Below are positions 1-46,198 of a stretch of 50,184 nucleotides of DNA, one piece after another. Positions within the stretch are counted from its first letter, which is position 1. Each line of letters begins with the position of its first letter. The notes beneath the pieces are model-generated. The model saw only the letters and a program-made list of their open reading frames with translations. It did no database searches and was not told where the DNA came from. The stretch is from Candidatus Bathyarchaeia archaeon (GTDB lineage: Archaea > Thermoproteota > Bathyarchaeia > Bathyarchaeales > Bathycorpusculaceae): assembly GCA_049515895.1 (NCBI GenBank), contig JBEKTQ010000026.1, positions 1-50,184 on the forward strand. Direction: 5' to 3'. Position numbers and translations under genes: made by a program.

Positions 1-746
1 CTCAAAAGTCCCTTCTGCTGCCTCATCTGATTCGCAGGATAAGGAATCACAGCCTTCACGCCAGAGTTGGACGCTTGCTCTCTCTGGCCTCGGCATGAAT
101 ACTGAGAGTCAGCGACCAAAAGTTTCATTCTCTTATTCGTCGACCTCAAAGCCTTCTCAAAAAGTGTCGGAGCATGCTTCTTCTCATTGTCATTCGCTGG
201 AGCAGCTACGACAGCTAATGGTAACTCAGACTTTGCATCAATAGCCACGTGCAGCTTGTAGCCAAGCTCATACGTCTTACCGTTTCTTCCCACTCTTGCC
301 TGCGGATCTGAAGCTCCTTTACTGTTATCATGAGGGTCTCGCCTGCTGTAGGCCTTAACGAACGTAGCGTCCAAAACCACGGTCTCACCGCTTATCAATC
401 CAGAATTCAAAAGTTTCCGAATCAGCTTGTTCATTATTTTTTGCAGCCTTCTCGGTCCGATGCGCCTTTTGAACCTTGATAGCTGTGATGGATGATACGG
501 ATTCTGGTCTGCCTCGAGGTCGCAGAGCTCACGCAGGTTCTCGTCTTTCCACAGTCGCCTGCAGAGTTCCCTCTCGCTTGGGATCTGCTGAAAACGCTTA
601 ACCATTAAGGCTTTGAATATGCCCATGGGTTTTCTCGGCGGCCTGCCTGGACTGCCCTCTTTGTGGTAAGCTTCCTTCACGACTTTTTCTATGTCGTCTA
701 GGTTCAGTTTGGACAGGATGGTGCATGAAAAGGTGGGTTCTTCCAT
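1..746 (-). mobile_element. DDE transposase (IS5/IS1182-like), 3' end runs off the window
   Basis: Not in the ORF track; translated by hand from ATG at 746: MEEPTFSCTIL...GRPPRKPMGIFKAL...VVLDATFVKAY...GYKLHVAID...LVADSQYS...VIPYPANQ. Contains the DAT, GYKLH and AD.gY motifs of DDE_Tnp_1-type enzymes. Confidence 0.9.
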
Positions 747-797
747 CTGTCACCCTGAATGGTCAACTCAAACAAACTTAAACACGAATATGTTAAT

Positions 798-826
798 CTC
801 AATGTTTTAGCAACAAACTGGCGCGC
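798..826 (-). repeat. Probable left terminal repeat of the IS (GCGCGCCAGTTTGTTGCTAAAA)
   Basis: Lies 80 bp upstream of the transposase start and resembles the GCGCGC-nnnnTGTtCC ends at 4759, 14886, 45870, 46034 and 49129. Confidence 0.55.
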
Positions 827-1015
827 ACAAAATCTCGTTCAACTCTTGATTAGCAACCACCTTTCTCTCATTCTAGGTCTTCATTTCCTGACTCAAATTT
901 TTGGTTTGTTAGTACATTTCCAATACTCAAATCAAAAGATTCAAGTCCATTTCAAAAAGTGCTTGTTTCATTACGGAAAAAGTATTATGTTTGAACAACT
1001 GATTGAGAACTAACA

Positions 1016-1465
1016 GTGAAAAGAATGTCAAACAAGCCATGGCGACTATCTGTCAGAGTTTTGATTCAAGACGATGAAGGACGATTCCTCATGATGAAGC
1101 GCTCCAACCGTTCAAAAAGCAACATTGGCAGGTGGGAGCCACCAGGCGGCAAAATCGACGCTGGCGAAAGCTTCGACGAAGCTCTAGTTAGAGAGGTCGC
1201 CGAAGAAACAGGTTTAACCATTTCCATTAAGAGTGTGGCTGGTGCGGTAAGCTGGGAAATGACTAAACTGAGGATTATCCAACTGATAATGGAAGGTTCT
1301 GTGGAGTCAGGTCAACTGCATCTCAGTAATGAACACAACGCTTACTCTTGGGTTAGACCTGAAGAGTTTTCAACCTTGGAGTTGGCAGATTGGTTTGAAT
1401 CCTTCGCGATGGAAATGGCAAGAAAAGCCTCCAAAGTTAATATGGTAAAAAATCCCAGCAAATGA
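1016..1465 (+). CDS. NUDIX hydrolase
   Basis: Complete Nudix box G-KIDAG-E-SFDEALV-REVAEETG. The stop codon abuts the GTG of the next gene. Confidence 0.92.
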   Translation: MKRMSNKPWRLSVRVLIQDDEGRFLMMKRSNRSKSNIGRWEPPGGKIDAGESFDEALVREVAEETGLTISIKSVAGAVSWEMTKLRIIQLIMEGSVESGQLHLSNEHNAYSWVRPEEFSTLELADWFESFAMEMARKASKVNMVKNPSK

Positions 1466-4400
1466 GTGAAGAATGAGGACCGCGTAATGACCGAATCTGT
1501 TAAGAAAATCTCAAACAAAATGTTAAACACTGAGGTTGCATTGTACGCACAGCTTTTTCCGCGTTACAAGCTTTACGCTGAAACTCTCTCAAAGGTGCTT
1601 GAGCAAGCTGTAAAGAAATATGCCCCCCAAGCTATGGTGCAAGCTCGGCCCAAAGCTATACCTAGTTTCGCGGAGAAGATCTTGCGAAAAAACATATACA
1701 CGGATCCTGTTAACGAGATGACTGATCTTTGTGGTGCAAGAGTAATAACGCACAGTCCCGAAGAAGTCAAATCGGTTTGTGAGTTTTTGGAGAAAAACTT
1801 TGTAATCGATTGGGACAACAGCGTAGACGTCAGCCAACGACTTAAACCTACAGAGTTTGGATACCGCTCCGTTCATTACATTGTGCAGTTTAAAGACGGC
1901 ATCTTTCCAAACAAGGAAGTGTCGGTTGAGGTGCCACAAGAGGTATTCGGTTTAAAAGCTGAAGTGCAGGTTAGAACCTTGCTGGAGCATTCTTGGGCTG
2001 ATTTCAGCCACGACTTGAGCTACAAAGGCACATTCAAAATCCCAGCAAAATGGGAGCACGAACTCGCAGGCTTGGCAGCTTCGCTCGAATCCGCAGATAG
2101 CACTTTTTCGAGAATTCGTTCGGGTCTTCAACTCTACGCAAGCAATTATGGCGCTTACATGTCTGAGCAACAAATTCGGGATGAGATAAATCTGCAGAAA
2201 CTGGTCTTGGAATATGACCCTGAAAATGTTGAAACAGCGCATCGCATTGGAAAATTGTGGTTAGAGTTGGGCGAATGGCAAAACGCCATTGATATTCTCT
2301 CAAAACATAAAGAATCAGACTACTTGCCATTATTAAGAGATCTTGGCGTTGCCTTGTGCAAGAAAAATAAGGATTACAGACAAAGCTTCGAATACACCGA
2401 AGGACAGAATTATCTGAAGACTGCTAGTGCTCCTCCAAGCAAAGACGTTGATGCTCTAACTTCCCTAGCAGCTACGTACAAAGAGATTGATGAAGACAAG
2501 GTGAGAGAGCTCCACCGCCAAGCATTCATGATTGATCCAACTAACCCCTACGTTTTGGGCAATTACTTGGAATCTGAACTAGTTCACAGACGGGATATTT
2601 CTATTCTATCCTTAATGGGTCCATTGATTGAAGCAGCCATTAGGCGCAGTTCAGACCAAGTCGAAGTCGGCATAAACATGCCCTGGGCGTATTACGACAT
2701 CGGCAAGTTTTACTTGCTCATGAACAAGCCTTATGAGAGTCTGGAAGCTTATGCCAAAGCTATCCAGATTAGTTTGCACGAATGGTTCTTGGATGCAGCT
2801 CTAAAATCCATCGAAAGACTTGCTTCGGTTCAAGACCAATTTCTAGGGTTTGAATGGGCGAAACGATTACTCCTGATCGGATTAGCTGCTAAATTCCCAC
2901 AGGCTGACTCAGGAAAGGCTGCTTTTGCGCAACTGAAGAAACAATCCCCAGCAGACCACAAACCAATCGCAGCGCCAGTGGTCATAGTAGCAGGCGGATG
3001 CAACTCCGAAGATGGAGCCAGAACCCAAGAATACGGTGAGCTGATCTTGGACGCTTTCCAAGACTTTGAAGGCACAATAATTTCCGGGGGAACTATATCG
3101 GGGGTTAGTGGGTTTGTAGGAGAATCACAACAGAAATATCCAAAGACAGTGAAGACGATGGGCTATCTTCCAAAGTCAGTCGAAATCAACATTGTGGACA
3201 AGCGTTATTCCGAAATTCGATTTACGGATGGCAACACTTTCAGTCCAATGGAGGGTCTTCAGTGCTGGACAGACATTCTTGTTTCGGGTATAAGCCCTTC
3301 TGACATCAAATTGTTAGGTCTAAATGGTGGAAAGATAGCAGCCGTCGAATATCGAATTGCAATAGCTCTGGGCGCTAAAGTTGCGATCGTTCAAGGGAGC
3401 GGAATGGAAGCAGCAAGATTAATTGCCGACAAAACTTGGAATACCTCATCGAATCTGGTATTATTACCTAACGATTCGTCAACGGTCTGGGCTTTTGTTC
3501 AATTTGGAACAAAGGCGTTTGACGCAGAAATTCGAGAAATTCTAGGTAAGGCCATTCATGAGAATTACATTACCATCGCAGCAAAAAAGAAGGACCAGGA
3601 CCCATCACAATTGTCCTGGTCCCACCTTCCAGAGTATCTCAAGGAATCAAATTGTCAACAAGCTGACCACATAACGGAGAAGCTTACCCGCATATCGTGT
3701 ATAGTCCACAAGGTGAAAAACCGGGAAGTTGCTCCGGTTAGGTTCACCAAAAGCGAGATAGAAGTTATGGCTGAAATGGAACATGGCCGATGGAACGTTG
3801 AAAGGCTTCTTGATGGTTGGAAAAAAGGTGCTCCAAAAGATATAGCTAGGAAGATTAGCCCGTACATAGTTCCCTGGTCTGAACTGCCCGAAGACATAAA
3901 AGAATATGACAGGGAAACCGTCAAGAAGATTCCGGAGTTCCTGGCGAATGTTTCACTTGAAATCGGGGTCTGCGGTAGAATTAGCAGCGGAAATGCTGAC
4001 CTCGACCGCCTCCTCTTGGGTGGGATACCTGAAGAATATGCAGTATTATTAACTTCACCCTCAAGCGATGAAAGAGAACTCTTGATCAACCGTTTCCTCG
4101 AAGCAGGAATTGATGCTGGAGAGACAACCATATTCATCACCGACAAAACTGTTAACGCGAACGCCTTAGTCCGACGTTCTTTTCCGAACTTCTATCTTCT
4201 CGTTTCAAACTCCAAAACTGAGGCGACCGACTGGAGTTTATCTCATTTGTTCAAATTCGAGGGAATAGACAATCTAACGGATATTGAAATATCTCTAACC
4301 AAGCTTCTCCGAACAATAAACTTCTCAAAGGCGGGTTCGAAGCGAGCTTGCGTCGATCTAATATCAGATGTGTTACTGCAGCACCACCCTATAATAACCA

Positions 4401-4648
4401 AAAAGTGGTTGAACAGTCTTCTGTCTACCTTGAAGTCAAAAGGTTTCACAACACTTGCAATTCTTGATCCCCAAATGCACACGCCAGAAGAGGTAGAGGC
4501 AGTCGCAAGCGTATTTGACGGCGAAATCAAACTCTACGAAAGAGAAAGCGCAAAAGGTCCAGAGAAAGTTCTGAAGATCCGAAAGCTCTACAACCAAAAA
4601 TATCTTGAAGAAGAATCTGTTTTGAGCCGAGAAAACCTCGAACGTTAG
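1466..4648 (+). CDS. Multidomain protein: RelA/SpoT synthetase domain + TPR + SLOG (LSDAT-like) + RyR repeats + degenerate KaiC/RAD55-like domain
   Basis: RPK..SF.EK, DLCGARV, GYRSVHY, EVQVRT..EH.WA..SHD..YK (synthetase); helical TPR-like middle; IISGGT.SGV, NGG.IA..EY.IA, VQGSG.EA (SLOG); AIHENY, EHGRW..ERL.DGW, PYIVPWSELPE..KEYDR (RyR); RISSG..DLDRLL.GGIPE with a non-canonical Walker A (KaiC-like). Confidence 0.85.
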   Translation: MKNEDRVMTESVKKISNKMLNTEVALYAQLFPRYKLYAETLSKVLEQAVKKYAPQAMVQARPKAIPSFAEKILRKNIYTDPVNEMTDLCGARVITHSPEEVKSVCEFLEKNFVIDWDNSVDVSQRLKPTEFGYRSVHYIVQFKDGIFPNKEVSVEVPQEVFGLKAEVQVRTLLEHSWADFSHDLSYKGTFKIPAKWEHELAGLAASLESADSTFSRIRSGLQLYASNYGAYMSEQQIRDEINLQKLVLEYDPENVETAHRIGKLWLELGEWQNAIDILSKHKESDYLPLLRDLGVALCKKNKDYRQSFEYTEGQNYLKTASAPPSKDVDALTSLAATYKEIDEDKVRELHRQAFMIDPTNPYVLGNYLESELVHRRDISILSLMGPLIEAAIRRSSDQVEVGINMPWAYYDIGKFYLLMNKPYESLEAYAKAIQISLHEWFLDAALKSIERLASVQDQFLGFEWAKRLLLIGLAAKFPQADSGKAAFAQLKKQSPADHKPIAAPVVIVAGGCNSEDGARTQEYGELILDAFQDFEGTIISGGTISGVSGFVGESQQKYPKTVKTMGYLPKSVEINIVDKRYSEIRFTDGNTFSPMEGLQCWTDILVSGISPSDIKLLGLNGGKIAAVEYRIAIALGAKVAIVQGSGMEAARLIADKTWNTSSNLVLLPNDSSTVWAFVQFGTKAFDAEIREILGKAIHENYITIAAKKKDQDPSQLSWSHLPEYLKESNCQQADHITEKLTRISCIVHKVKNREVAPVRFTKSEIEVMAEMEHGRWNVERLLDGWKKGAPKDIARKISPYIVPWSELPEDIKEYDRETVKKIPEFLANVSLEIGVCGRISSGNADLDRLLLGGIPEEYAVLLTSPSSDERELLINRFLEAGIDAGETTIFITDKTVNANALVRRSFPNFYLLVSNSKTEATDWSLSHLFKFEGIDNLTDIEISLTKLLRTINFSKAGSKRACVDLISDVLLQHHPIITKKWLNSLLSTLKSKGFTTLAILDPQMHTPEEVEAVASVFDGEIKLYERESAKGPEKVLKIRKLYNQKYLEEESVLSRENLER

Positions 4649-4758
4649 CCATAGAGCAAGAGTTGCCATAAGGGCATACCTGCAAGAAAAAAAGTTTTCA
4701 GCTTAAAAACGTGCCTGAAGAGAACTAGACAAATAGGCAATTTTAATCTCTATTAGAT

Positions 4759-5240
4759 GCGCGCTGGCTTGTCCCTTTAATTGGTGTAAAGTGGTTAAAA
4801 GTCTTATTTTTTAGTTTGGGGACAGATTTGAGGCACGTAATCCTTCCCTGTTTCTTTGCAGTAGCCACCCTTCTCAAACATGCAAACGTACGTAAGCCGA
4901 CTGAACTGCAAGGTCACAAACGCTTCATACGGGTTTTCAAGTGCAGCCTACACCTGCTTAGAGGCTGCAGACGGAACGCGGTAGGTGAATTTAGGTCTTC
5001 CAAGAGTGTTTGAAGCCATCTTCTCCTTAACAAAGAGGCCTCAACCTGTTAACCTTTGAAGATGTCGTTGCAGAGTGTTATGGGTAAAGCCTACTTCGCC
5101 CAGAAGCTCAGAGAAGCCTCCGGGTTTCCCGTCTTTAAGCGCGGCCAAAATGCGTTCCTCAAAGAAGCCCATCACAGGCTTAAACAAGCAACAACGAACT
5201 TACAACCATTTTTAACCATTTATTTAACTCCCCTGCGCGC
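4759..5240. mobile_element. Non-autonomous element with GCGCGC-ended imperfect inverted repeats, carrying a wHTH pseudogene
   Basis: Left end GCGCGC...TGGTGTAAAGTGGTTAAAAGT; right end (reverse complement) GCGCGC...TGGTTAAAAATGGTTGTAAGT. Confidence 0.7.
4804..5172 (-). pseudogene. Winged-helix (ArsR-like) regulator with Cys-rich tail and two in-frame stops
   Basis: Hand translation: MGFFEERILAALKDGKPGGFSELLGEVGFTHNTLQRHLQRLTG*GLFVKEK...GRPKFTY...QV*AALE...CMFEKGGYCKE...ICPQTKK. TGA at 5041-5043, TAG at 4948-4950. Confidence 0.75.
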
Positions 5241-5284
5241 TTGCAACCTATAGAATTGTAATTTATTGTAATTTGTCGTTTAGT

Positions 5285-8200
5285 CTAAATCAAGCGGTCA
5301 CTTTTATCGGTTAGTAACAATTGGATAGTGTCCGCGAGTTCTTGAAAGTGTTTCTCTACCGGGGGTGTCATGGCATCAAGCCAGTGCTTGGCGGATAGCA
5401 AATATTCCATTCCTTCCGTTGGCTCCACGTTTTCAATTCGAAAAGGTATTATTGGAATTCCTTTACGCACGGCTTTTTCGACTTCTCGCATGACTTGACC
5501 AGACTTGTTCGATTCAGTAGAAAAAACCAAAACCAAAATACGACTGTTATTAAGCGCATGTGCCAGTGCCGCTGGATAATCCGCACCTGCTGGTATGTTG
5601 CGCGGCGCTATCCAGCATGGAATTTTTCGACTTTCCAAAGTAGAACACAAAGCGTCGGCTACATTCTTGTCACGGTTTGAATAGGATATAAACACATCAA
5701 AAGGTGTTTCTTGAGGTTTTTCTGCAACGTTTCCAATGGCAGAGGCATCGCCTTTTTGCGCGAGTGCATTTCTTAGTTGTGTTGGTGTGGGTGCTTTTGG
5801 TGGTCTATTCCAAAACTTCTTGTAAACAATTAGTGCGACTACTATTGCCACAGGAATCATAAACAGAAAAAGGTACCCGAATGGAAAACCAGCATTAGAT
5901 TTTGCATTTAATTTTGGTGTTGGCGTAACTATTGGTGTTGGTGTTGGCGTAACTATTGGTGTTGGTGTTGGCGTAACTATTGGTGTTGGTGTTGGCGTAA
6001 CTATTGGTGTTGGTGTTGGCGTAACTATTGGTGTTACAGTAGATTGAGCCGAAGTTGTGCCAAAACTGTCAGTAACTGTTGCAGTAATTGAGTAGGAACC
6101 TGCAGAAGCAGGAGAATAACTAAACGTTGACGCAGTTGCGCCTGACTGAGCAGCCCCACCCACATACCACTGATAACCCGTATAAGAACCTGAACCCCCG
6201 CTAGGAGTAGCAGTAAACAGTTGAGATTGACCAGGAGAGACAGAAACAGTTGGCGCACCATTCACCATAACCGAAATAGCTGTAGATGTAACGACAACCG
6301 GGGTACTGGCGCTGTCAGTTACTTGAAGCTCAAAACTCCACGATCCAGCAGTCGTAGATCCAGTTGTAACAAAAGAATAACCAGAGGAGGTTGCACCCGA
6401 AATAGAAGAGAAACTACCAGCACCGGGAGCCTTCTGAAGCCACTGATAAGTGTAAGGAGAAGTGCCAGTTGTAACCGTCGTCGAACTCAAAGTTGAAGTT
6501 TGACCCTGATCAATTGTAGCTAAAGAAGCAGATGCTGTCGGAACAACAAGAGCAGAATTCACCGTGACCGTTGTAGCAATAGATTGAGTTGAAGTCAAGC
6601 CTAAACTGTCAGTAACAGTCGCAGTAATCGAATAAGAACCAGCAGATGTTGGAGAATAACTAAACGTTGACGCAGTTGCGCCTGACTGAGCAGCCCCACC
6701 CACATACCACTGATAACCCGTATAAGAACCTGAACCCCCGCTAGGAGTAGCAGTAAACAGTTGAGATTGACCTAAACCGTTAGGCGTAAAAGCAATACCA
6801 AGCGGCTCATTTCCAACGGTTACTGTTGCGTTAACCGTATTCGTAGCCGTACTTACAACCGACACTGTACCGCTGCCATAATTCGTAACATAAGCGTATA
6901 AACCGTTAGGCGTAACAGCCACACCATCAGGATTGTTACCAACGGTTATTGCTGCTGTCACCGTATTCGTAGCCGTACTTACAACCGAAACCGAACTGCC
7001 TTGATTGGTAATATAGGCGTATAAGCCATTAGGCGTTACAGCTACACCGTAAGGACTGCTGAAACCGGTTAAGGTAGCCGTAACCGTATTTGTAGCCGTA
7101 CTTATAATTGAAACCGTACCGTCTCCTCGATTTATAACGTAGACGTATGCCCCGTTAGGTGTTATGGCTACACCAACAGGTCCATTTCCAACGGTTATCG
7201 TTGCGGTAACAGAATTCGTGGCTGTACTTATTACCGAAACAGTAGTGCCGCCGGCATTTGTAACATAAGCGTATAAACCGTTAGGCGTAACAGCCACAAA
7301 CTCAGGATTGCCTCCAACGGGTATCGTTGACGTAACCATATTCGTAGCTGTACTTATAACTGAAACCGTGCCGTCACCCCAATTTGTAACATAGGCATAA
7401 GCGCCGTTAGGTGTTATGGCTACACCAACAGGTCCATTTCCAACGGTTATCGTTGCGGTAACAGAATTCGTAGCCGTACTTACAACCGAAACCGAACCAC
7501 CTCCTTCATTTACAACATAGGCATAAGCGCCGTTAGGTGTTACAGCTACACCCCAAGGACTGCTGCCTGCAGGAGCCGTTGCAATAACCGTATTCGTAGC
7601 CGTACTTACAACCGACACTGTACCGCTGCCATAATTCGTAACATAAGCGTATAAACCGTTAGGCGTAACAGCCACACATGAAGGCTTGCTTCCTACGGAC
7701 ACGGTTGCAGTAACCGTATTCGTAGTCGTACTTACAACAGAGACCGAACTGCTGGCGTAATTTGCAACGTAGGTGAACAAGCCGTTAGGAGTTAATGCCA
7801 CACCTCCAGGATAGGTTCCAACGGTCACATTCGTCAAAATAGTATTGGTAGCCGTACTTATCACTGAAATCGTAGTGTCGCCGTCATTGGTGACATAAGC
7901 GTATAAGCCGTTAGGCGTAAAAGCCACACCATATGGATTATTTAAACCGGTTATCGTCGACGTAACTGTGTTCGTGGCTGTACTTATTACCGAAATAGTA
8001 GTGCCGCCGGCATTTGCAACATAAGCATAAGCACCGTTAGGTGTTATAGCCACACCAACAGGAGTGTTTCCAACGGTTACTGTTGCAGTAACCGTATTCG
8101 TAGCCGTGCTTATCACTGAAACCGAACCACTACCAAAATTCGTGACATAGGCGTACAAACCGTTAGGCGTAACAGCCACACCAACAGGAAAGGCTCCAAC

Positions 8201-8560
8201 GGTTACATTCGAGATAACCGTATTCGTAGCTGTGCTTATCACTGAAACCGAACCACTACCAAAATTCGTGACATAGGCGTACAAACCGTCAGGCGTAACA
8301 GCCACACCAAATGGATTATTTAAACCGCTTATCCTCGACGTAACCGTGTTCGTAGCCGTGCTTATCACTGAAACAGTAGTACCGCCCTCATTTGCAACAT
8401 AAGCATAAGCACCGTTAGGTGTTATAGCCACACACTCAGGTTCACTTCCTACGGTAATCGTCGACGTAACCGTATTCGTACCTCGAACCGTGTTGGTTAC
8501 CGACAATACAATAATCACGGCGAATACCAAACCTAAGAGCTTCCAAACCTTAGCTTTCAT
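5285..8560 (-). CDS. Single-pass membrane protein: signal peptide, ~14 YVTN-type beta-propeller blades, Ig/PKD-like repeats, Pro-Thr linker, TM helix, C-terminal TIR domain
   Basis: ATG at 8560 gives a signal peptide (MKAKVWKLLGLVFAVIIVLSV); 14 TP[N/D]G repeats; TM segment FPFGYLFLFMIPVAIVVALIVY followed by KK; TIR motifs DVFISYS..D and S.QV.REVE.A. Confidence 0.9.
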   Translation of the reverse strand: MKAKVWKLLGLVFAVIIVLSVTNTVRGTNTVTSTITVGSEPECVAITPNGAYAYVANEGGTTVSVISTATNTVTSRISGLNNPFGVAVTPDGLYAYVTNFGSGSVSVISTATNTVISNVTVGAFPVGVAVTPNGLYAYVTNFGSGSVSVISTATNTVTATVTVGNTPVGVAITPNGAYAYVANAGGTTISVISTATNTVTSTITGLNNPYGVAFTPNGLYAYVTNDGDTTISVISTATNTILTNVTVGTYPGGVALTPNGLFTYVANYASSSVSVVSTTTNTVTATVSVGSKPSCVAVTPNGLYAYVTNYGSGTVSVVSTATNTVIATAPAGSSPWGVAVTPNGAYAYVVNEGGGSVSVVSTATNSVTATITVGNGPVGVAITPNGAYAYVTNWGDGTVSVISTATNMVTSTIPVGGNPEFVAVTPNGLYAYVTNAGGTTVSVISTATNSVTATITVGNGPVGVAITPNGAYVYVINRGDGTVSIISTATNTVTATLTGFSSPYGVAVTPNGLYAYITNQGSSVSVVSTATNTVTAAITVGNNPDGVAVTPNGLYAYVTNYGSGTVSVVSTATNTVNATVTVGNEPLGIAFTPNGLGQSQLFTATPSGGSGSYTGYQWYVGGAAQSGATASTFSYSPTSAGSYSITATVTDSLGLTSTQSIATTVTVNSALVVPTASASLATIDQGQTSTLSSTTVTTGTSPYTYQWLQKAPGAGSFSSISGATSSGYSFVTTGSTTAGSWSFELQVTDSASTPVVVTSTAISVMVNGAPTVSVSPGQSQLFTATPSGGSGSYTGYQWYVGGAAQSGATASTFSYSPASAGSYSITATVTDSFGTTSAQSTVTPIVTPTPTPIVTPTPTPIVTPTPTPIVTPTPTPIVTPTPKLNAKSNAGFPFGYLFLFMIPVAIVVALIVYKKFWNRPPKAPTPTQLRNALAQKGDASAIGNVAEKPQETPFDVFISYSNRDKNVADALCSTLESRKIPCWIAPRNIPAGADYPAALAHALNNSRILVLVFSTESNKSGQVMREVEKAVRKGIPIIPFRIENVEPTEGMEYLLSAKHWLDAMTPPVEKHFQELADTIQLLLTDKSDRLI
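5916..6035. repeat. 5 x 24-bp perfect tandem repeat encoding the Pro-Thr linker
   Basis: GGTGTTGGCGTAACTATTGGTGTT repeated five times. Confidence 0.95.
6111..6772. repeat. Identical 122-bp direct repeat (6111-6232 and 6651-6772) in the Ig-like domains
   Basis: Base-by-base identity read from the sequence; the copies are 540 bp apart. Confidence 0.9.
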
Positions 8561-9203
8561 AAACAATACCCAACCTTTACTTCGCGCGTGGAATAAACTG
8601 GGAACAGGAATAACACGAGTAAAGCGGAGACGAAAATTGCCTCTGTTTTCATCTTTCTCGCCAGAAGGTACACTATATGCAAAGCCTCTGCTTGCCTTTA
8701 GCTTTTTCCATTTCCAGTTTTTCAGCGTGCACCAAGTTTTTCTGAACTGCCAAAACGTCATCCTTACTAATTGCAAATTTTAAAGCCATTAACTATAGCG
8801 CGATGGTATGGGAAGTGTTTTACGTGAGAGGCGCTCACGCCATGTTAGCGCGCGCGCAAATCAAACTGCCAAAAACATATAAGTCATATTCCAAAAACGT
8901 AACATATCAAAACACTTTATGCCACCATTTCTTTTTCTTCAAAAAGCAGATTTAAAATTTATCATCAATTAAAACTTGGCTAAAATACTACGAGTGATAC
9001 AAAACGTTATGTTTTCTAATCTCTCCAGCAACAATCAGACTTTTTTATTTCAGTTTCTTGAAGTTCGCCTCACGGAGATTTAATTCTTGCTAACATGTAG
9101 ATATATATATAAAATAAGCCAGCGTTTTTTGTGTCAACAAACGATGTTTCTTCTTTTTTTTGTTTCCCATAATCTCTCTAAATTTGGTATTTCCATGTTT
9201 AGG

Positions 9204-9497
9204 CTATTTCTTACGCTATGCAAATTCAAGACTTATCTTAACGAAAACTTGCTAAATATTCTCTTTTAGTTCTTTCCTTAGTTTTTGGATAGCCCTCAAA
9301 GCACCTCTTTCACCTCACTATTTGCTCTTCTTTCTTTTTCTTCATTGAATCTTCGATTTTCTGTGTAGTTTCATTAAGGCATTTTTCACGATATTCTTCA
9401 CAAGTCATTCATTTATTCACCTCACTTTTTTGTCTTTTTACGGAATAATATCTCTGCTATGTTCAAGCTATTTCTACGCTATGCAGATTTAAGACTT
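9204..9497. repeat. Two copies of a 30-bp motif CTATTTCTACGCTATGCAGATTTAAGACTT (variant at 9204-9234, exact at 9468-9497)
   Basis: An identical third copy lies at 41334-41363. Confidence 0.85.
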
Positions 9498-9904: not shown

Positions 9905-10525
9905 TCAGCTGTACAATTTTCCGTTCAGCCATGTTAAAGGGCCAGTGTACGCTTGAGCTCCGACGTTGACGATGGTGCTGAAAATCGTCGAAGGAAGCGC
10001 TAGAACATAAAGCCCGTTGTCCGCCCCAGAAGTTACGGTATAGTTCACATCTACCTGATGAATGCTAATCAATGTTATGCTTGATATAGTAACCCTTAAT
10101 CCTGAGTCGGCGCCAAGAGTGCCATTCAACAGATTAACCTTAAGCGCGGGAACAGGGTCTGTGAAGAAAGACATTGTTAAATTGTTGGATGAGGTGTACG
10201 AGACCGTGATTTGACCCACGCTGTTAGGTAACAAGACAAATTCAATCGTTCCGGATGTCGGATTCACAACCGTCACAAACCCGCTTTCGCTAGGAAAAGA
10301 CACAGTTGCAAATATGCTGGGACCATTGGACGGACCAACTGTCCCTACAGGAGGTGTTTGGGTAGATGCCTGACCAACTGTTACTTCAGGAGATGTTTGC
10401 GTAGATGCCTGATGTATGTACCCAAGTCCGTAGTAAAGTGAAACCAACAGTAACGCAAAAAGAATCAATGCTATGTCAAATAGGACTACCCGTTTCTTCA
10501 TATCTCTTTGCATTTGAATGATCAC
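9905..10525 (-). CDS. Hypothetical membrane-anchored exported protein
   Basis: N-terminal TM helix, short QASTQT..V.TVG duplication, Ser/Thr/Val-rich beta-type body. Confidence 0.7.
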   Translation of the reverse strand: MIIQMQRDMKKRVVLFDIALILFALLLVSLYYGLGYIHQASTQTSPEVTVGQASTQTPPVGTVGPSNGPSIFATVSFPSESGFVTVVNPTSGTIEFVLLPNSVGQITVSYTSSNNLTMSFFTDPVPALKVNLLNGTLGADSGLRVTISSITLISIHQVDVNYTVTSGADNGLYVLALPSTIFSTIVNVGAQAYTGPLTWLNGKLYS

Positions 10526-10920: not shown

Positions 10921-12870
10921 CTATTGACCGTTGTAGTATCTGATTAACGGTGGATGTAATGGGTCATTTGGATTCATCATTCTAACGAACGCATTAAGCT
11001 CAGTTGGAGGCTCTACATAATCTGTTTCAATTATAATGAATTGAGTATCTTGCAATGGACCTTCAGCAAGTCTATAGAGATATTGATAGAACGATTCAAA
11101 TATCTCTAGATTTACTCCCTTGCCTACATTTTTCATCGGCGAATCAATGATTAGGAAATTAGGAAGGGGCAAGTCATTCTCTGCAGCCACTTTATGGATA
11201 GCAAGCGCATAGCAAACAGTTAAGATGGTTTTTTTACCACCGCTGCCAGCATTAAAAAAATCCAAAACGTTTTCCTTCTTTCCATGCTCTAAAATATATG
11301 GAATCCAATTAGCACGGTCGATTTCAACAACGTCATCCTCATAAATCCCTGGCAACTTGATTGCAATAAGAGCTTCAAGATAGCTTCTAGCTATTTGCTT
11401 GACCAACTGTTCTGAGGTTTTTAGTGTTTTTTCTTCTTGGTCCACTTCAAGTTTCAGTCGCTCTTCTTCTGAGAAAAGTATTGAGAGATCATCCTCCATT
11501 TTGCTAACTTCTTTGGGTAGTTCAATAGTTTTTTTGAGATTTCTGATCCTTTCTTCTAGAGAGGCGACCTCATGTTCCTTCTCTCTTGTTTCAGCGACAA
11601 AGTTAGAATCGTAAGACCTAAGCGCATCTGCAAGTTTTTTGTCAGCTGCATTCTTTTTCTCTCTTAATTCCAAGTATGCCCTTTTTTGCTCTTGCTGAGC
11701 TTTTTTCTGACGTTCAATAGAGTCTTCAAGCTCAAAAATCCTCGAATCTAGATCAAGTTTCAAAGCGTCCTCTTTAACATCTTTACCTTCACTTTCGTTA
11801 GTCGCTTCCTTGCATAATGGGCAAACGCTTTGCCCAGATTGAGCCCTAGTTAAAACCTTGTTACCACAGGCAGGGCATACTTCAAAATGCACGTTTTCGA
11901 ATACGTTTTTTGCCGAAAGAGTACGGACTAACTTGAACTTAGACGCAATAAGCTCCGCCCTCAAGGATTCCTGTTCATTAATCCTTGTTCTGAGGTCAAT
12001 TAAATTTTGTTCGGTATCAGATAATTCCTTTTCTAATCCTCTGAGGAGTTGCCGCTGATCATCAACGAAATGAGTCTCCTTCGCATATCCCTGATGCATT
12101 TGTTGGACTTCCGCGACGGCACTCGATAATTGAAACTCAACTCCCTGTATCTCTTCAAGCAATTGATTCTCAGAGCTATAACCTAATCTTTCCAGAAACA
12201 ATTTGACATTCTCAATTTCGCTCGTTTTCTTTCCTTTTAATTGACGAACCACGTCCAATTGACCCTTGAGTGCTGAAAGCCTATCCGTATATGCTCCCGT
12301 GATGAAATCGAGTATGTAACGGCTATTCCGCAGTTTGTAATCGGTTTTTAGCCAGAAGAATGCTGAATCCATTACGTTTTGCTCTAAGTAGCAATACCAC
12401 ATGAAATTCCGAAAGCTCAGTCTCACTGTCTGCTCCTCGTTGGCAGCCTTGCTTTTTGGTATCCTCAGCGCCTCTTCTCCCGCAAGATAGAAGAGCAAAT
12501 CATTGAGATTTTTTATGTCGTTTTTCCATATAGGAACAGGTGATTCTCCTATCGGTGCAAGCACGCTCCCATATTGACCCTCTCTATTTGTCCAGCTAAC
12601 TTGCACTTGAGAACCATATGCTTGACGTTCAAAGATTGTTTCGTTCTCGCCAATTGTAGCTTTAAGCTCTACTGCAACCATTTCGCTTTTAATTGCGGGG
12701 GTTCTTTCAAGTTCACCACCCAAACAATAGTCAATCAAACGTGCAATCGTGGATTTACCTGACGATAACTTTCCATAGAATAGTGACAGTGTTGAAGAAA
12801 ACTCTATGGTCTCAACGGATTGCTTGCATGTCAATGTAAGAGTTTTAAAACGCACCTTGAACTTGATCAT
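10921..12870 (-). CDS. lmuB: SMC-like ABC ATPase of a Lamassu/ABC-three-component system (LmuB-like)
   Basis: Walker A GKLSSGKST, long coiled coil with central CPAC...CPLC, signature GSGGKK, Walker B LIIDSP; overlaps the upstream gene by 4 bp. Confidence 0.8.
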   Translation of the reverse strand: MIKFKVRFKTLTLTCKQSVETIEFSSTLSLFYGKLSSGKSTIARLIDYCLGGELERTPAIKSEMVAVELKATIGENETIFERQAYGSQVQVSWTNREGQYGSVLAPIGESPVPIWKNDIKNLNDLLFYLAGEEALRIPKSKAANEEQTVRLSFRNFMWYCYLEQNVMDSAFFWLKTDYKLRNSRYILDFITGAYTDRLSALKGQLDVVRQLKGKKTSEIENVKLFLERLGYSSENQLLEEIQGVEFQLSSAVAEVQQMHQGYAKETHFVDDQRQLLRGLEKELSDTEQNLIDLRTRINEQESLRAELIASKFKLVRTLSAKNVFENVHFEVCPACGNKVLTRAQSGQSVCPLCKEATNESEGKDVKEDALKLDLDSRIFELEDSIERQKKAQQEQKRAYLELREKKNAADKKLADALRSYDSNFVAETREKEHEVASLEERIRNLKKTIELPKEVSKMEDDLSILFSEEERLKLEVDQEEKTLKTSEQLVKQIARSYLEALIAIKLPGIYEDDVVEIDRANWIPYILEHGKKENVLDFFNAGSGGKKTILTVCYALAIHKVAAENDLPLPNFLIIDSPMKNVGKGVNLEIFESFYQYLYRLAEGPLQDTQFIIIETDYVEPPTELNAFVRMMNPNDPLHPPLIRYYNGQ

Positions 12871-13415
12871 ATCTTGATTTTCTCCCCGCTCTTTAGTGAG
12901 GTTATCTCTGGAAATGTTTCATAAATAAAAGATCGCAAGTTAGTGCCACTCTCATCAAAAAATCTTTTAAGTATATGGGCCCTGTTGACGGTGATTTCAA
13001 ATTCTTCAGAACGAGTTAGTTCATCAGCGACTTGAATGCCTTTGCAAGTCAGCCCTATATAGACGGTTCGTCCCTCTTTCCTAATTTCGCATAAACCCAT
13101 GCCTATTAGCAAGTTTAGAAAAGTATCATAGCGAGGGTCCCAAGGTCCATACTTGTAGCGTATCATTGCAGATTCAACGCTTCTTCGCTCATATTCCAAA
13201 ATTGCAAGATTATCAATTGGTTGATTTCTTTTCATTAGGGCTTGTTCTAAGTAAACAGGATAGCGAAGTAGAAAATCAAGCTTAACGAGTTTTGTTTTTC
13301 CTGCAACTTCGTCGGTTCCATTCTTGCCTGCAAAGGCCCTAAGAAGAACGAGAAGTCTTGCAGTATGTAACTTAGGGTCATCTTCAAGTTTCGCTAATTC
13401 CTTAAAAAGGCTCAT
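12867..13415 (-). CDS. lmuC: Middle component of the ABC-three-component system (LmuC-like)
   Basis: KLVKLDFLLRYP and MIRYKYGPWDPRY motifs; sits between the effector and the ATPase with overlapping ends. Confidence 0.7.
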   Translation of the reverse strand: MSLFKELAKLEDDPKLHTARLLVLLRAFAGKNGTDEVAGKTKLVKLDFLLRYPVYLEQALMKRNQPIDNLAILEYERRSVESAMIRYKYGPWDPRYDTFLNLLIGMGLCEIRKEGRTVYIGLTCKGIQVADELTRSEEFEITVNRAHILKRFFDESGTNLRSFIYETFPEITSLKSGEKIKI

Positions 13416-14658
13416 TCTCTTCCTCCTTTGTTAGATCAAACCGTTCGCTCCACCAAATTTTGCAATCTTCAGTTAAAATGCCAGCAATCCCTAGCAGTTG
13501 TGGATAACTCATTTCATGGTATTGATTCTTGACTTGAGAGTCAAAGGCAATATGCAATTTATCACGCGCTAGCCCTAGCATTCTCTCTCCGTATAGTTCG
13601 TTAGGCTTTTTAGCAGAGTCATGGGCCTCTTGGCATTCATTCCAAACCAAAACCGAAAGATTGTCTGCATGCTTTTCCGCCTCAATTCTTCCACGCTTAT
13701 GAAGCCATTCAATGAATAGATACTGAGCGGACCAATTGTTATTTTTCATAAGGTCAATGTTGGAGTTGTCGATACCGCCTCGTATCATTTTTCGCTCCAA
13801 TATCTTAGTTGCGTTTTGTGTGAGCAGTATGGGCTTTGGCTCAATACTTTTTAAAAGTATTACAGAATCGGCACACTGACTTAAGCGATTCTCAATCATG
13901 GCAGGAGTAATTCTCTTGTTTTCAATTATCGCTTGATTAACAGTAGCTTGCGGATTTTGAAGCATACCGTAGTAGGAAGGCTTGGATAAATCGGTTGAAC
14001 GGCAGGCTGCGGCAGATGTAAGCCCGATTAACTCTTCAGCCATGTTAGACAAAACATACGCAGGCTGAGTTTGACTGTTTGTTATTTTTGATAAGTCATC
14101 AGCAAGGATAGCTTTGTAGTGGTCAAGGTCTGCCCAATCTACTAACCTCACTTTATTGAGCGTTGACAAAGCTTGCTTCTTACTACAATTTGCCAGCCCA
14201 GTCAAAGTTTCGATTTTGCCGGAAAACATATGACCCTTTTTGTCGATTCGAACTTTGCCTCTCTGCAAAAGATCAAGAGCATGACTCAAGTCTGAGCTAT
14301 CCCTGCTTGACGCAAAACCACAATTTGTTGCAAGATGGAAGCTCCCAAAGGATTTAGGAAAGTCACTATCAAGCCGGATGAATTTCTTCAGACTCTGAAG
14401 TATCTCATCGTCGCCGAATCTGAACGGGCCCAGAGACTTTTGTTTAGTTTTGACTTGGACCCCGATAAATTTGCCACTCTTGCATTTTACCAAAACGTCC
14501 TCATACTGCTCACAATAAATGCATTCATAAGGAGAGCTTTCTCCAAGAAGCTGGAGCGCAACATAGGCTGCATATGCCGCTTGATATCGAAAACGGTTCT
14601 GAGTATTATCCCCTGTGTCACTTGTATCTGTCGACTGGTCAGGGGCTTTATTTGACAA
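13402..14658 (-). CDS. lmuA: Cap4/DUF4297-like PD-(D/E)xK nuclease effector with ABC-3C C-terminal domain (LmuA-like)
   Basis: G....RFRYQ, E.YEDV, QVKT nuclease motifs; C-terminal LGIAGILTEDCKIWWS. Confidence 0.8.
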   Translation of the reverse strand: MSNKAPDQSTDTSDTGDNTQNRFRYQAAYAAYVALQLLGESSPYECIYCEQYEDVLVKCKSGKFIGVQVKTKQKSLGPFRFGDDEILQSLKKFIRLDSDFPKSFGSFHLATNCGFASSRDSSDLSHALDLLQRGKVRIDKKGHMFSGKIETLTGLANCSKKQALSTLNKVRLVDWADLDHYKAILADDLSKITNSQTQPAYVLSNMAEELIGLTSAAACRSTDLSKPSYYGMLQNPQATVNQAIIENKRITPAMIENRLSQCADSVILLKSIEPKPILLTQNATKILERKMIRGGIDNSNIDLMKNNNWSAQYLFIEWLHKRGRIEAEKHADNLSVLVWNECQEAHDSAKKPNELYGERMLGLARDKLHIAFDSQVKNQYHEMSYPQLLGIAGILTEDCKIWWSERFDLTKEEENEPF

Positions 14659-17153: not shown

Positions 17154-17367
17154 ATGCGGAAAAGGTGATGAAGCGTTTAAAGGCAGCAGAAAAAAGTTAG
17201 CCCCCGCAGAGAAAAAATTTGTTATCATGGACTTTGACGGCTCCTACTTTGGCGATTGCGGATCAAGCATTTCTCAAGAACAACTTGCCGGCTGGTTGGA
17301 AAAACAAGAGCCGACTGCCGAGATAACAATCATAAAGTACTTGACCGAGGTGCTGTGTGTTGACTGA
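17150..17367 (+). pseudogene. Small viral-type protein, apparently frameshifted at an A6 run
   Basis: TTG at 17150 gives MNAEKVMKRLKAAEKS*; one extra A at 17190-17195 continues into KLAPAEKKFVIMDFDG... Confidence 0.5.
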
Positions 17368-17926
17368 AAACAAAACAACTATAAAAGTCCCTGATGCGTA
17401 CCTGCCTCTCCTAGAAGACTTAAGGCTCCTGAAAAGCGACGATAACAACCCAAACAAAATGACGCTAAAACAGAAAGGACAGGTCTGGAATAGCCTGCAG
17501 AAATACGGGTGGACTTACCCGATCATAACTAACAAGGACGGCATTTTCGCAGATGGGGAACAAAGAGCAAGCGTCTGCATTGAACATGGCGAGTTTTTCG
17601 CTCCCGTTTTGCGTTTGCCAGTTTCTGACGTTGACCGACGGATACTAAGGCAAATCCTCAATAAACTCAAAGGGACGCACAGCAAGGAACTTGACAGCGC
17701 CGAATACCTTCGCATCATAGAAGCCGGGGAAAAAGACTGCCTAAAAGCCCTGCTCGATTCCATTGGTGAAAAGCTGCCGCAGGAAAACGACCAGGTCTCC
17801 GAAGGTCCAACTACTATACCTGACAGCTATGAGCTACTCATAGAATGTAAGGATGAGACTGAACAAAAGCGTTTCTTTGATACGCTAAAGGCTGAAGGCT
17901 ACCATGTCAGGGTGCTGAATCTATAG
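17357..17926 (+). CDS. ParB/Srx-like N-terminal domain protein
   Basis: NPNKM...SLQKYGW..PII.....ADGEQR pattern. Confidence 0.75.
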   Translation: MLTENKTTIKVPDAYLPLLEDLRLLKSDDNNPNKMTLKQKGQVWNSLQKYGWTYPIITNKDGIFADGEQRASVCIEHGEFFAPVLRLPVSDVDRRILRQILNKLKGTHSKELDSAEYLRIIEAGEKDCLKALLDSIGEKLPQENDQVSEGPTTIPDSYELLIECKDETEQKRFFDTLKAEGYHVRVLNL

Positions 17927-17938
17927 GAGGCGTGCCTT

Positions 17939-18622
17939 ATGAATTTTGAACTTTCATATGATTGGAGTGAGCCGAAAAGTTTCCGAGCTCAAAGCGTTGT
18001 TGGCAGCTTCACGCTGAGCGACGCTAAATTGCAAAAGTGCTTCAAAGGCTCCTTGCCAATAGAAGATTTTGATTGGCAAATTGGTGTAATAGTCGGTCGT
18101 AGCGGCTCAGGCAAATCAAGCATAGCAAAACACGTTTTCCCAGACTGCTACGTTACAGGATTCCAGTACAGCCACCAATGTGTCCTCGACGACTTCCCAG
18201 AAAACTTGCCGACCAGCGAAATCACGCGCCTGCTCTGCAGTGCCGGCTTTGCGTCGCCTCCAGACTGGCTCAAAGCCTACAATTGCCTAAGCCAAGGAGA
18301 AAAGATGCGTGTTGACATCGCCAGAGCGTTATGCCTTCCTCAGCAGTTGATTGTTTTCGACGAGTTTACATCAGTTGTCGATCGTGAGGTTGCAAAGATC
18401 GCTTCTTTTGCAATCAGCAAGGCAATTAGACGGCTGGACGGCAAGAAGTTCATTGCAGTTACCTGTCACTATGATGTTGTAGACTGGCTGGATCCAGATT
18501 GGGTATTCTGTACTGATACGATGGAGTTTGACCGAAAAAAAGAGTGCGGCCGCCCGTTGAACTCCAAGTTTATCGGTGCGGCAGGTCAATGTGGCAAATG
18601 TTTCGGCAATATCATTATCTGA
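17939..18622 (+). CDS. ABC-type ATPase (N-terminal half of an ABC-GNAT fusion)
   Basis: GRSGSGKSS, LSQGEKMR, VFDEFTSVVDR, VTCHYD motifs. Confidence 0.88.
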   Translation: MNFELSYDWSEPKSFRAQSVVGSFTLSDAKLQKCFKGSLPIEDFDWQIGVIVGRSGSGKSSIAKHVFPDCYVTGFQYSHQCVLDDFPENLPTSEITRLLCSAGFASPPDWLKAYNCLSQGEKMRVDIARALCLPQQLIVFDEFTSVVDREVAKIASFAISKAIRRLDGKKFIAVTCHYDVVDWLDPDWVFCTDTMEFDRKKECGRPLNSKFIGAAGQCGKCFGNIII

Positions 18623-19050
18623 ACGGCAAACTCGGCGCAGGCGTCAGATGCTACACAGCCCTCTACCATGAAAAGCCTGTAGCCTTCATCGCAGTCGCGC
18701 ACATCCATATGAGAGCCAACTTGTTCCGTGTTAGCCGCCTAGTGGTTTTGCCAGATTATCAGGGCATAGGCATAGGTAAACGGCTGCTGAATTTTATTGC
18801 TGAACTCTACACGTCACAGATCACTTTGCCGTTCTATCTGGTAACAAGCAATCCACAGTTCATCCATGGAAATATGAATAACTGGAAAGTGAAACGTGTT
18901 GGACATAGCAACACAGGGAAAAAGGCAAACACGCGAATAAATCTGGGTCTTTCCAAGTCTGCTAGTCGGCAGCGCCTAACGGTTTCACTTCAATACATTC
19001 CAATAGCTGAATCAGCAAAACAAAGCGAACTTTTATGCAAGAAACAATAG
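18544..19050 (+). CDS. GNAT acetyltransferase (probably reached by -1 frameshift from the ABC ORF)
   Basis: W.MFRQYHYL; RLVVLPDYQGIGIG acetyl-CoA binding motif; overlaps the ABC ORF in the -1 frame. Confidence 0.85.
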   Translation: MRPPVELQVYRCGRSMWQMFRQYHYLNGKLGAGVRCYTALYHEKPVAFIAVAHIHMRANLFRVSRLVVLPDYQGIGIGKRLLNFIAELYTSQITLPFYLVTSNPQFIHGNMNNWKVKRVGHSNTGKKANTRINLGLSKSASRQRLTVSLQYIPIAESAKQSELLCKKQ

Positions 19051-20300: not shown

Positions 20301-20459
20301 TAACTTCAAAGTTGCTGGTTTTTGTACGCCTGTAGCTATCTGTTTTAAGCATAATCATTGCTGGTTTCTAAATAGGTTAACTAAAATAGCCCAGCATAAC
20401 CATGATAGATAAGCCTTAAAACCTCAACCCCCATTTTAAAGCCAGAGGAAAGCACCAAA

Positions 20460-46034: not shown

Positions 46035-46198
46035 TAGTGGCACTTATCGTGTTCCTTATAGTGAAGATAGCCAAAAAATGGAAAATAGATTAAACCTTCT
46101 ACTCTTTTTTTCTTTTTTTGGATTAGCTTAACGCAATAGAGAAAGGTTAAAAACATATTTTAGGCGGTTTCGCCCTTAAGTATCTAGGGGAACCTCGG

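Follow-up and report, generated by a model that had tools for sequence, protein, structure and literature searches.

A NUDIX, RelA/SpoT-SLOG and TIR gene cluster in a defence island of a Bathyarchaeia archaeon: a possible Thoeris-like signalling module

What might a RelA/SpoT enzyme built onto a putative ligand-sensing body do when it is encoded between a NUDIX hydrolase and a membrane-anchored TIR protein? The question is raised by a 50,184-nucleotide stretch of DNA from Candidatus Bathyarchaeia archaeon (assembly GCA_049515895.1, contig JBEKTQ010000026.1, positions 1 to 50,184 of the forward strand; hereafter, the window), in which the three genes are neighbours. An initial annotation, made from the letters alone, had proposed that an outside cue activates the TIR protein, that the TIR product gates alarmone synthesis through a SLOG domain and that the NUDIX enzyme resets the signal. 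Pfam, PADLOC and a list of open reading frames (ORFs) confirmed the three genes at the positions and with the domains it had given; every domain it named was correct, although the RyR module and KaiC-like tail of the RelA/SpoT protein (hereafter, the core) had been missed. Across related loci the NUDIX gene and the core are a constant pair, whereas TIR partners are frequent, close, mostly co-oriented and exchangeable. We tentatively favour the reading that the module is a horizontally acquired, Thoeris-like signalling system in which the TIR protein would make an NAD-derived signal, the SLOG and RyR parts of the core would sense it, the RelA/SpoT domain would supply the output and the NUDIX hydrolase would act as a buffer. 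The module comprises the following features, with (+) and (-) denoting the strand.

1016..1465 (+): NUDIX hydrolase gene, 149 aa, MutT-like (PF00293, 4.9e-21; PADLOC candidate PDC-S07, 1.7e-21)
1466..4648 (+): core gene, 1060 aa, RelA/SpoT-TPR-SLOG-RyR-KaiC-like
1646..2029 (+): RelA/SpoT nucleotide pyrophosphokinase domain, core residues 61-188 (PF04607, 1.2e-17)
2153..2905 (+): helical TPR region, residues ~230-480 (TPR_1 and TPR_2 at residues 407-435)
2972..3514 (+): SLOG domain of the TRPM type, LSDAT_prok, residues ~503-683 (PF18171, residues 504-571)
3521..3973 (+): helical plus RyR-repeat module, residues ~686-836 (PF02026, residues 765-832)
3986..4591 (+): KaiC/RecA-like tail, residues 841-1042 (PF06745, 2.2e-12)
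~4759-5221 (-): degenerate repeated element between the core and TIR genes, a pseudogene of a small winged helix-turn-helix (wHTH) protein with two in-frame stops
5285..8560 (-): membrane TIR protein gene, its open frame reaching 8776
5336..5695 (-): TIR domain (TIR_2; PF13676, 2e-20; frame residues 1028-1147)
5825..5881 (-): transmembrane helix between ectodomain and TIR domain (Kyte-Doolittle 19-residue mean 2.75, frame residues 966-984), followed by KKFWNRPPK
~6032-6600 (-): two PKD domains (PF00801)
6827..8479 (-): extracytoplasmic YVTN/lactonase-type beta-propeller repeats (PF10282, PF21783; TIGR02276 in 13 stretches, 1.8e-143)

The enzymatic head of the core is nearest, among solved structures, to RelQ/YjbM and RelP. 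Its motifs RxKxxxSxxEKxxRK, DxxGxR, GYRSxH and ExQxRT align with RelQ, the residues being invariant in 22 of 22 homologues. The score of the core with the RelQ/YjbM equivalog NF053588 of NCBIfam, 61.5 bits against a cut-off of 320, marks a relative and not an equivalog, and the RelA part also matches the PADLOC candidate family PDC-S33. The helical region corresponds to TPR-S (PF20308) in 10 of 22 family members, with a best E value of 2.2e-4. PF18171 identified the SLOG domain only weakly in the core (26.6 bits, cut-off 25.4), with 19/22 homologues matching. This call was confirmed by structure prediction, as an AlphaFold2 model of residues 480-836, built from a 20-row alignment and with a mean predicted local distance difference test score (pLDDT) of 89.9, aligns to LOG, TRPM2 and ThsA folds. 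In a VIA-align comparison with 48,161 representative chains, model residues 24-204 matched the LOG-family structure 1rcu (Z 17.4) and the TRPM2 chanzyme 8sr7 (Z 14.1), with further matches to DprA, TRPM5/7/8, YpsA and ThsA (7uxs and 7uxt, Z 11.2-11.3, one with 3'-cyclic ADP-ribose (3'cADPR) bound), and Foldseek placed the N-termini of TRPM2/4/8 among the matches of the same model. Core residues ~503-683 are thus confirmed, at the level of a predicted model, to fold as SLOG, which bears out the fold that had been assigned to residues ~500-670. The RyR module is recognised by PF02026 in the core (1.8e-11, 44.5 bits, cut-off 27.4) and in 22/22 homologues; 3nrt, a bacterial RyR domain, is matched by model residues 207-357 (Z 9.4), and the top Foldseek matches are crystals of RyR3 Repeat12 with ATP, ADP or AMP-PCP.

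The NUDIX stop codon abuts the start of the core gene, the real start of which may be the Met at codon 8 (1487), almost invariant among homologues. As had been claimed, the hydrolase is intact: its NUDIX box, read from the translation as GKIDAGESFDEALVREVAEETGL, fits the consensus GX5EX7REUXEEXGU. The box is strict in 35 of 47 core-adjacent NUDIX domains, and 11 others in which it is covered retain the E-x2-EE glutamates, one adjacent match (L046) being truncated within the box by the contig end. The nearest solved relative of the window enzyme is 3grn, a 'MutT related protein' (4.8e-28), followed by MutT, NudG-like CTPase/CTP pyrophosphohydrolase and NudI; an 'ADP-ribose pyrophosphatase MutT' chain matches at 9.7e-6, and the 60 solved matches listed do not include NUDT9. 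As the enzyme resembles MutT, NudG and NudI more than ADP-ribose pyrophosphatases, its target may be the product of RelA/SpoT and not the TIR signal, and the role of resetting the latter, originally assigned to it, loses ground. Its resemblances suggest that it cleaves a nucleoside polyphosphate, the simplest candidate being the RelA/SpoT product, in which case it would be a threshold-setter or antitoxin and not an ADP-ribose eraser. Prediction of a complex between the NUDIX protein and the RelA/SpoT head (residues 1-240), both entered as alignments, gave a score of 0.14 (mark, 0.32), which counts neither for nor against contact.

The core belongs to a large family. A word-indexed search, in which 8000 candidates were scored, yielded 275 relatives; 117 of the 120 best lack the tail, are ~790-900 aa long and show 46-64% identity across bacterial and archaeal phyla. 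With a SLOG-RyR profile, the number of cluster representatives recovered is 2080 at a threshold of E<=1e-30, rising to 6243 at E<=1e-10. The supposition that the combination is exceptional in archaea is therefore not sustained, as members of the core family number in the thousands across bacteria and archaea, nearly all of them from uncultured lineages. Composition was sampled in 21 cluster representatives picked for odd lengths. NUDIX is fused N-terminally to RelA/SpoT in three of them (P0192, P0204, P0224), and the existence of these fusions indicates that NUDIX and core work together. SLOG-RyR is joined to a protein kinase in one (P0233), two combine TrkA_N with several RyR repeats, and seven have no RelA/SpoT head and may be fragments or split genes. 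Genome G814 encodes a protein with RyR, TPR-S and cyclase parts beside a TIR. A 949-aa protein of this kind with RyR, TPR-S and nucleotide-cyclase domains (L115:2838-5687, -) lies directly upstream of a TIR gene of the window clade (L115:1617-2816, -), and it repeats the scaffold logic of the core with another enzymatic head. Judged from domain composition, then, the TPR-S/SLOG/RyR scaffold is modular, with swappable kinase, cyclase or RelA/SpoT heads.

Gene neighbourhoods were surveyed in contigs of one genome per species, in which 308 stretches encode core relatives; the best 80 loci were kept. Counts were made with our own hidden Markov models for NUDIX, TIR and DUF4062, built from few seeds and run on all stop-to-stop frames, and may miss divergent members; the ORF caller gave no core ORF in L029 and L057. 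A NUDIX domain lies within 350 bp of the core in 45/80 loci (36/64 when at least 500 bp is present on both sides) and anywhere in the flanks in 53/80. TIR_2 occurs within 3.5 kb of the core in 17/80 loci and DUF4062 in 15/80; the two were counted separately because a profile-profile comparison by hhalign, given below, was not significant. With DUF4062 assumed to be TIR-like, one or the other is found within 3.5 kb in 31/80 loci, within 350 bp in 15/80 and, at loci flanked by 5 kb or more on each side, within 5 kb in 17/33. Among the TIR/DUF4062 domains within 3.5 kb, 30/35 are on the strand of the core; the density of such domains falls from 1.18 per 10 kb in the first kb to 0.1-0.7 farther away. 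The association of TIR with the core is thus real and far above background, but facultative. The co-occurrence suggested by the initial annotation therefore stands as far as these frequencies go, whereas co-divergence and a strong reciprocal association, considered below, were not found.

The partners themselves resemble sensors. Pfam, which covered 95 of 275 flanking proteins called (loci L001-L026), detected propeller-like, TPR, WD40, NACHT/STAND and PPC parts in TIR/DUF4062 partners, and SLATT proteins also occur. By a crude hydropathy scan, a membrane helix is predicted in 17/25 TIR_2-type partners as opposed to 0/22 of the DUF4062 type, and a variable outer domain usually follows the helix, which lends support to the earlier idea of a membrane receptor. 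A further partner, a TrkA_N-RyR protein of ~600 aa with hydrophobic N-terminal segments, is present in 24/80 core loci (e.g. L009:3938-5755, L111:9105-10943 and L012:7362-9062), and was not found in the window's genome. The RyR module of the core is 41% identical to residues 452-601 of the L009 protein, and the family looks like a channel-like effector that shares this module with the core. The same kind of protein also lies beside a core-less TIR in G576. In a 75%-identical metagenome relative (L090-L094), a NUDIX gene (74% identity, tblastn) is directly upstream of the core. Downstream, a secreted collagen-like protein is followed by a convergent gene for 252 aa, the product of which has two hydrophobic segments and ends in a TIR domain. 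The gene for the collagen-like protein, which has Gly-X-Y repeats, is at L093:7232-7981 (+), flanked by those for the core and the membrane TIR.

In the window, the TIR protein has the layout of a single-pass receptor. The ATG at 8560 opens a signal-peptide-like MKAKVWKLLGLVFAVIIVLSV, after which come YVTN beta-propellers, PKD domains, a Pro/Thr linker, one transmembrane helix and a cytoplasmic TIR domain. The glutamate to which attention had been drawn (REVE) withstands comparison: in an alignment with the solved TIR Cat1, the first Glu of 'MREVE' stands opposite the WDELE glutamate, which we take to be the catalytic residue of Cat1, and the column is invariant in 17/17 aligned core-adjacent TIR domains. 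The TIR domain of the window is 41-69% identical to core-adjacent TIR domains of other phyla. As the window's own genome holds just 2 TIR_2 matches in 3.18 Mb, the position of one of them beside the core is unlikely to result from chance.

According to the favoured Thoeris-like reading, the constant unit would be a two-gene operon of a MutT-like NUDIX hydrolase and an effector whose RelQ-like head is carried on a putative ligand-sensing TPR(-S)/SLOG/RyR scaffold. The TIR protein would be the variable partner, a single-pass membrane protein here and in the nearest clade, and a DUF4062-STAND/WD40/TPR protein in other clades. A cue at the envelope would trigger the TIR partner, which, by analogy with Thoeris, would convert NAD+ to an ADP-ribose-derived messenger. 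From its fold, the SLOG pocket of the core would be expected to bind this messenger, possibly together with the RyR module, which is of an adenine-nucleotide type. Binding would release the RelA/SpoT head, whose motifs are intact, to pyrophosphorylate a purine nucleotide to a (p)ppNpp alarmone (a tRNA 3' end is a less likely substrate), with arrest of growth as the outcome. The co-translated NUDIX enzyme, the linkage of which is shown by adjacency and fusion, would constantly hydrolyse the nucleoside-polyphosphate product or the messenger, so setting a threshold and preventing self-intoxication. This order of events fits because the scaffold carries differing enzymatic heads while the TIR proteins carry sensor-like parts.

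Several observations weigh against this reading. At 49/80 loci, many of them with short flanks, neither TIR nor DUF4062 lies within 3.5 kb of the core, and hhalign, comparing profile with profile, found no link between DUF4062 and the TIR clade (probability 0.9%). SLOG domains may be enzymes, as in LOG, or sensors, and the motifs kept in the core do not discriminate between them; the NUDIX protein is more like an NTP pyrophosphohydrolase than an ADP-ribose hydrolase. Co-phylogeny of TIR and core was not detected, with a Mantel r of 0.25 for 16 pairs (274 of 5000 permutations as high) and of 0.01 for the 11 window-type pairs, and the closest core (77% identity) is accompanied by a TIR just 24% identical to that of the window. 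The TIR gene of the window is convergent to the core and separated from it by a spacer of 636 bp that holds the pseudogene, and so is not co-transcribed with the core. Finally, in an unbiased sample of 401 genomes of another phylum, that of G431, the TIR clade is represented by 10 genes in 7 genomes, of which one is beside a full core (G431), three are beside RyR and/or TPR-S proteins and six are beside unrelated genes. The three are neighbours of the TrkA_N-RyR protein in G576, the RyR, TPR-S and cyclase protein in G814 (one gene) and a TPR-S protein in G566 (one gene); in G621 the neighbours are LemA and a weak NUDIX match, and those of the five remaining genes are unrelated or have no family match. 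The neighbours of an extra strong TIR in G434 are likewise unrelated.

These results would be expected if two independent units merely shared the island, an explanation which we regard as rather unlikely but as the most serious competitor. The NUDIX gene and the core would then be a self-contained toxin/antitoxin-like or single-effector module that senses through its own TPR, SLOG and RyR parts, and the TIR protein a separate NADase or receptor. NUDIX adjacency is indeed far more constant than that of TIR_2, which together with the reciprocal result, the lack of co-phylogeny, the convergent TIR gene and the pseudogene spacer speaks for independence, as does the habit of islands to gather defence genes, a Lamassu system being next door. 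It does not readily account for TIR/DUF4062 partners directly downstream of the core within 350 bp in 15/80 loci from many phyla, or for their predominance on its strand. In five genomes with both core and TIR, the best match to the TIR clade is the core-adjacent gene in 5/5, core-less genes of the clade are still beside RyR or TPR-S proteins in three of the other nine, and the 75% relative retains a convergent membrane TIR. Both genes appear, in addition, to be foreign to the lineage. The core was found in 0/24 same-genus genomes, in which only the KaiC-like tail recurs, on other large proteins, and it looks like a recent import in this genus; the TIR clade has 1 weak match in 400 other genomes of the window's own phylum. 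As the TIR clade is nearly missing from the phylum and the core was not found in the 24 same-genus genomes, the observations are consistent with acquisition of both from outside the lineage.

Less probable again is a role in physiology and not in immunity, the literal form of the initial proposal, in which a surface cue such as a polymer, a neighbouring cell or a metal would lead through a TIR messenger to a stringent-response-like alarmone, with NUDIX as the off-switch. The large ectodomain of the window TIR and of most TIR_2 partners is unusual for sensors of intracellular phage components, and the core matches no known defence system model beyond candidate families. However, the spread of the core is patchy and suggestive of horizontal transfer, as it was found in 0/24 same-genus genomes yet is 46-64% identical across phyla; it lies in an island with an insertion sequence, Lamassu and terminase; and ectodomains and STAND sensors are freely swapped between close relatives, as is typical of conflict systems. 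Reversal of the flow, so that the body of the core senses and its RelA/SpoT head makes a messenger that activates TIR NADase effectors (elsewhere the TrkA_N-RyR membrane protein) and is degraded by NUDIX, is the least credible alternative: RelA/SpoT enzymes classically make signals and the head is similar to RelQ/RelP, TIR domains joined to a STAND NTPase frequently act as NADase effectors, a MutT-like NUDIX suits a nucleoside-polyphosphate messenger and the TrkA_N-RyR protein of 24/80 loci shares the core's RyR module, of which the related Repeat12 structures bind adenine nucleotides, but the TIR partners carry sensor-type parts (ectodomains, WD40, TPR, NACHT) and no recognisable nucleotide-sensor domain, SLOG, the known receptor of Thoeris TIR products, sits in the RelA/SpoT protein, and the head on the SLOG/RyR/TPR-S scaffold varies, as expected for an output.

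A bolder elaboration of the preferred Thoeris-like reading, which we advance as speculation and consider improbable, is that prokaryotes possess single-pass receptors in the style of Toll-like receptors, in which one helix links a hypervariable ectodomain to an enzymatic TIR in the cytoplasm, and that these receptors trigger a nucleotide relay of two tiers. An NAD-derived messenger would be read by the TRPM-type SLOG domain and would switch on the RelA/SpoT enzyme, the product of which would be a second messenger read by RyR on the core and on the TrkA_N-RyR partner and erased by NUDIX. The SLOG-NUDIX pairing of TRPM2 and the nucleotide-binding RyR repeat would, on this speculative view, descend from such modules.

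How does the module compare with systems already described? It resembles Thoeris in that a TIR with a Glu aligned to that of Cat1 WDELE is combined with a separate SLOG-bearing effector, the SLOG fold matches ThsA, including the Bacillus cereus ThsA (BcThsA) SLOG with 3'cADPR, the module is in an island and the TIR partners are variable. It differs in its output, a RelA/SpoT pyrophosphokinase and not SIR2 (type I pairs the TIR protein ThsB with ThsA, a SIR2-SLOG protein, and type III combines TIRs with a SLOG effector), in a SLOG domain of the TRPM/LSDAT type flanked by TPR and RyR, in the NUDIX gene as a near-constant third part, and in a TIR anchored to the membrane with an ectodomain. The core has no ThsA match in PADLOC, and the TIR matches ThsB models weakly (5.4e-4 and 4.6e-3); Thoeris_type3_ThcB4 of NCBIfam gives 23.6 bits for the module against a cut-off of 220. 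A 2025 preprint on Thoeris (10.64898/2025.12.03.692087) lists 29 putative effector types, and alarmone, ppGpp and NUDIX are absent from its main text.

RelA/SpoT enzymes are also known as toxins, namely toxSAS, CapRel and Tas1, and fused CapRel has a sensor part attached to the enzyme. As in toxSAS (FaRel, PhRel, CapRel) and Tas1, a RelA/SpoT-fold enzyme would be the growth-arresting output of a conflict system, and as in toxSAS a tightly linked upstream gene could neutralise it. Unlike these toxins, the core has a head nearest RelQ/RelP, with no toxSAS or Tas1 structure matching at E<=0.01; its 1060 aa hold five modules with a putative ligand-sensing body (~830 aa in the family) in place of a small single domain; the linked gene encodes a NUDIX hydrolase; and activation is proposed to occur via a small molecule, not a phage capsid protein. 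Full-text literature searches returned no paper that combines toxSAS and NUDIX.

With TRPM2, an ADP-ribose-gated channel that has an LSDAT SLOG part (MHR1-2) and a NUDT9-H NUDIX domain, the core shares the SLOG subfamily, LSDAT_prok being the prokaryotic counterpart of the TRPM domain in Pfam, the alignment of its model to the TRPM2 chanzyme (Z 14.1) and to TRPM4/5/7/8, and the linkage of SLOG to a NUDIX partner. The NUDIX of the window type is, however, a separate gene or an N-terminal fusion and is more MutT-like than NUDT9-like, and the output of the core is an enzyme and not an ion channel; the channel-like TrkA_N-RyR protein is an extra partner in some loci only (24/80), the window's genome not among them. 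The BcTir/BcTpr anti-phage pair of Bacillus cereus similarly combines a TIR gene with a TPR-bearing protein, and in the survey of its preprint the core Tpr architecture has LSDAT and further SLOG domains among its companions. It differs in that the TPR protein itself is reported there as the NADase, and that no RelA/SpoT, RyR or NUDIX part is described for it. The definitions of LSDAT and TPR-S are credited to Burroughs et al. 2015 in later papers.

In agreement with the initial annotation, which did not recognise the combination as a described system, a RelA/SpoT-SLOG protein with TIR and NUDIX partners was not described in the full-text literature searched, a scope to which preprint supplements and Burroughs et al. 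2015 did not belong. The logic of TIR to SLOG is already known from Thoeris, but a RelA/SpoT output enzyme has probably not been described for such systems. If TIR products do gate RelA/SpoT, the module would join TIR/NAD-derived immune signalling with alarmone/toxSAS growth control and extend the list of enzymatic outputs of Thoeris-type systems. Membrane TIR partners with variable ectodomains would provide a testable case of surface sensing by an enzymatic TIR in prokaryotes, archaea included, and the module places the SLOG, NUDIX and RyR parts known from the TRPM2 and ryanodine receptors of animals in a concrete prokaryotic context. Among plasmids, 0 records cover at least 80% of the core and 14 match the RelA/SpoT head alone. 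As the family is large, almost all uncultured and not covered to this extent by any plasmid record, a cloned operon would open an unexplored system.

The surroundings of the module include the following features.

3..746 (-): IS4/IS5-type DDE transposase, truncated by the window edge and flanking the module (PF01609, 5.2e-16; PF05598, 1.2e-13)
9905-10525 (-): 206-aa protein with a hydrophobic N-terminal segment, between the TIR gene and Lamassu, with no Pfam or PADLOC match
10921-12870 (-): Lamassu LmuB (8.7e-85)
12867-13415 (-): Lamassu LmuC (1.1e-14)
13402-14658 (-): Lamassu LmuA of the Cap4-nuclease type (1.2e-25; PF14130, 5.3e-23)
19035-20300: terminase large subunit

The Lamassu system at 10921-14658 is complete and begins ~2 kb past the TIR gene; with the transposase of the insertion sequence and the terminase nearby, it places the module in a mobile defence island. 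The regions 17357-22414 and 28133-31036 hold, besides the terminase, methyltransferase-like genes (mad2/mad3 and MTase_II matches), a phosphoribosyl pyrophosphate synthetase-like gene and an Lhr/BrxHI-like helicase (3.3e-97), which suggest a prophage remnant plus more defence genes. A scan of the window found no tRNA genes, and a promoter and terminator scan of 700-9300 gave counts at the level of shuffled sequence, the sigma-70 model being unsuited to an archaeon.

The adjacency of core and TIR is not an artefact of assembly, as a single contig of run X2 spans 3421-5601 with zero differences and the order NUDIX, core, TIR recurs on the metagenome contig L089. None of 17 runs listed is an RNA data set, and the contigs compared derive from DNA only. 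Run X4 contains a variant-strain contig (depth 8.8) in which GT is inserted between the NUDIX stop and the first start codon of the core (1465/1466); its two pieces, of 1.5 and 2.3 kb, differ at 8-9 bases each. The small inserted element between core and TIR, noticed at the outset, is real and is a degenerate wHTH copy. Copies of this element of ~460 bp occur elsewhere in the genome, one 75% identical at G000:C12:24594-25055 and partial ones at C18:60116-60275, C28:12156-12228 and 45870-46035 of the window, and contig depth peaks over 4759-5221 in all four runs.

The KaiC-like tail is confined to 3 of the 120 best listed core homologues. At its P-loop position, where GxxGxGKT/GxxGxGK[ST] is expected, the translation reads LLTSPSSDEREL (TSPSSDER); Walker A is absent, and by its sequence the tail is therefore not an ATPase. 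The same degenerate motif was found in a paralogue. In the genus and order the tail recurs as a movable C-terminal module with the P-loop replaced by SPS[SC]DE, fused to 1306-1375-aa proteins, an AAA_16/BrxC-like protein and an HTH_45 protein, with copies at G000:C3:67139-67852(-) and G000:C14:5822-6532(+) and in L123, L124 and L125. We propose that it is a lineage-specific docking or oligomerisation add-on.

The only other TIR of the window's own genome is a 159-aa ThsB_TIR protein (4.8e-20; G000:C14:48198-48494, L126:4124-4603 -). It directly adjoins an 8xMP octameric membrane protein (1.8e-27), and the two genes are likely to form a small Thoeris-like pair.

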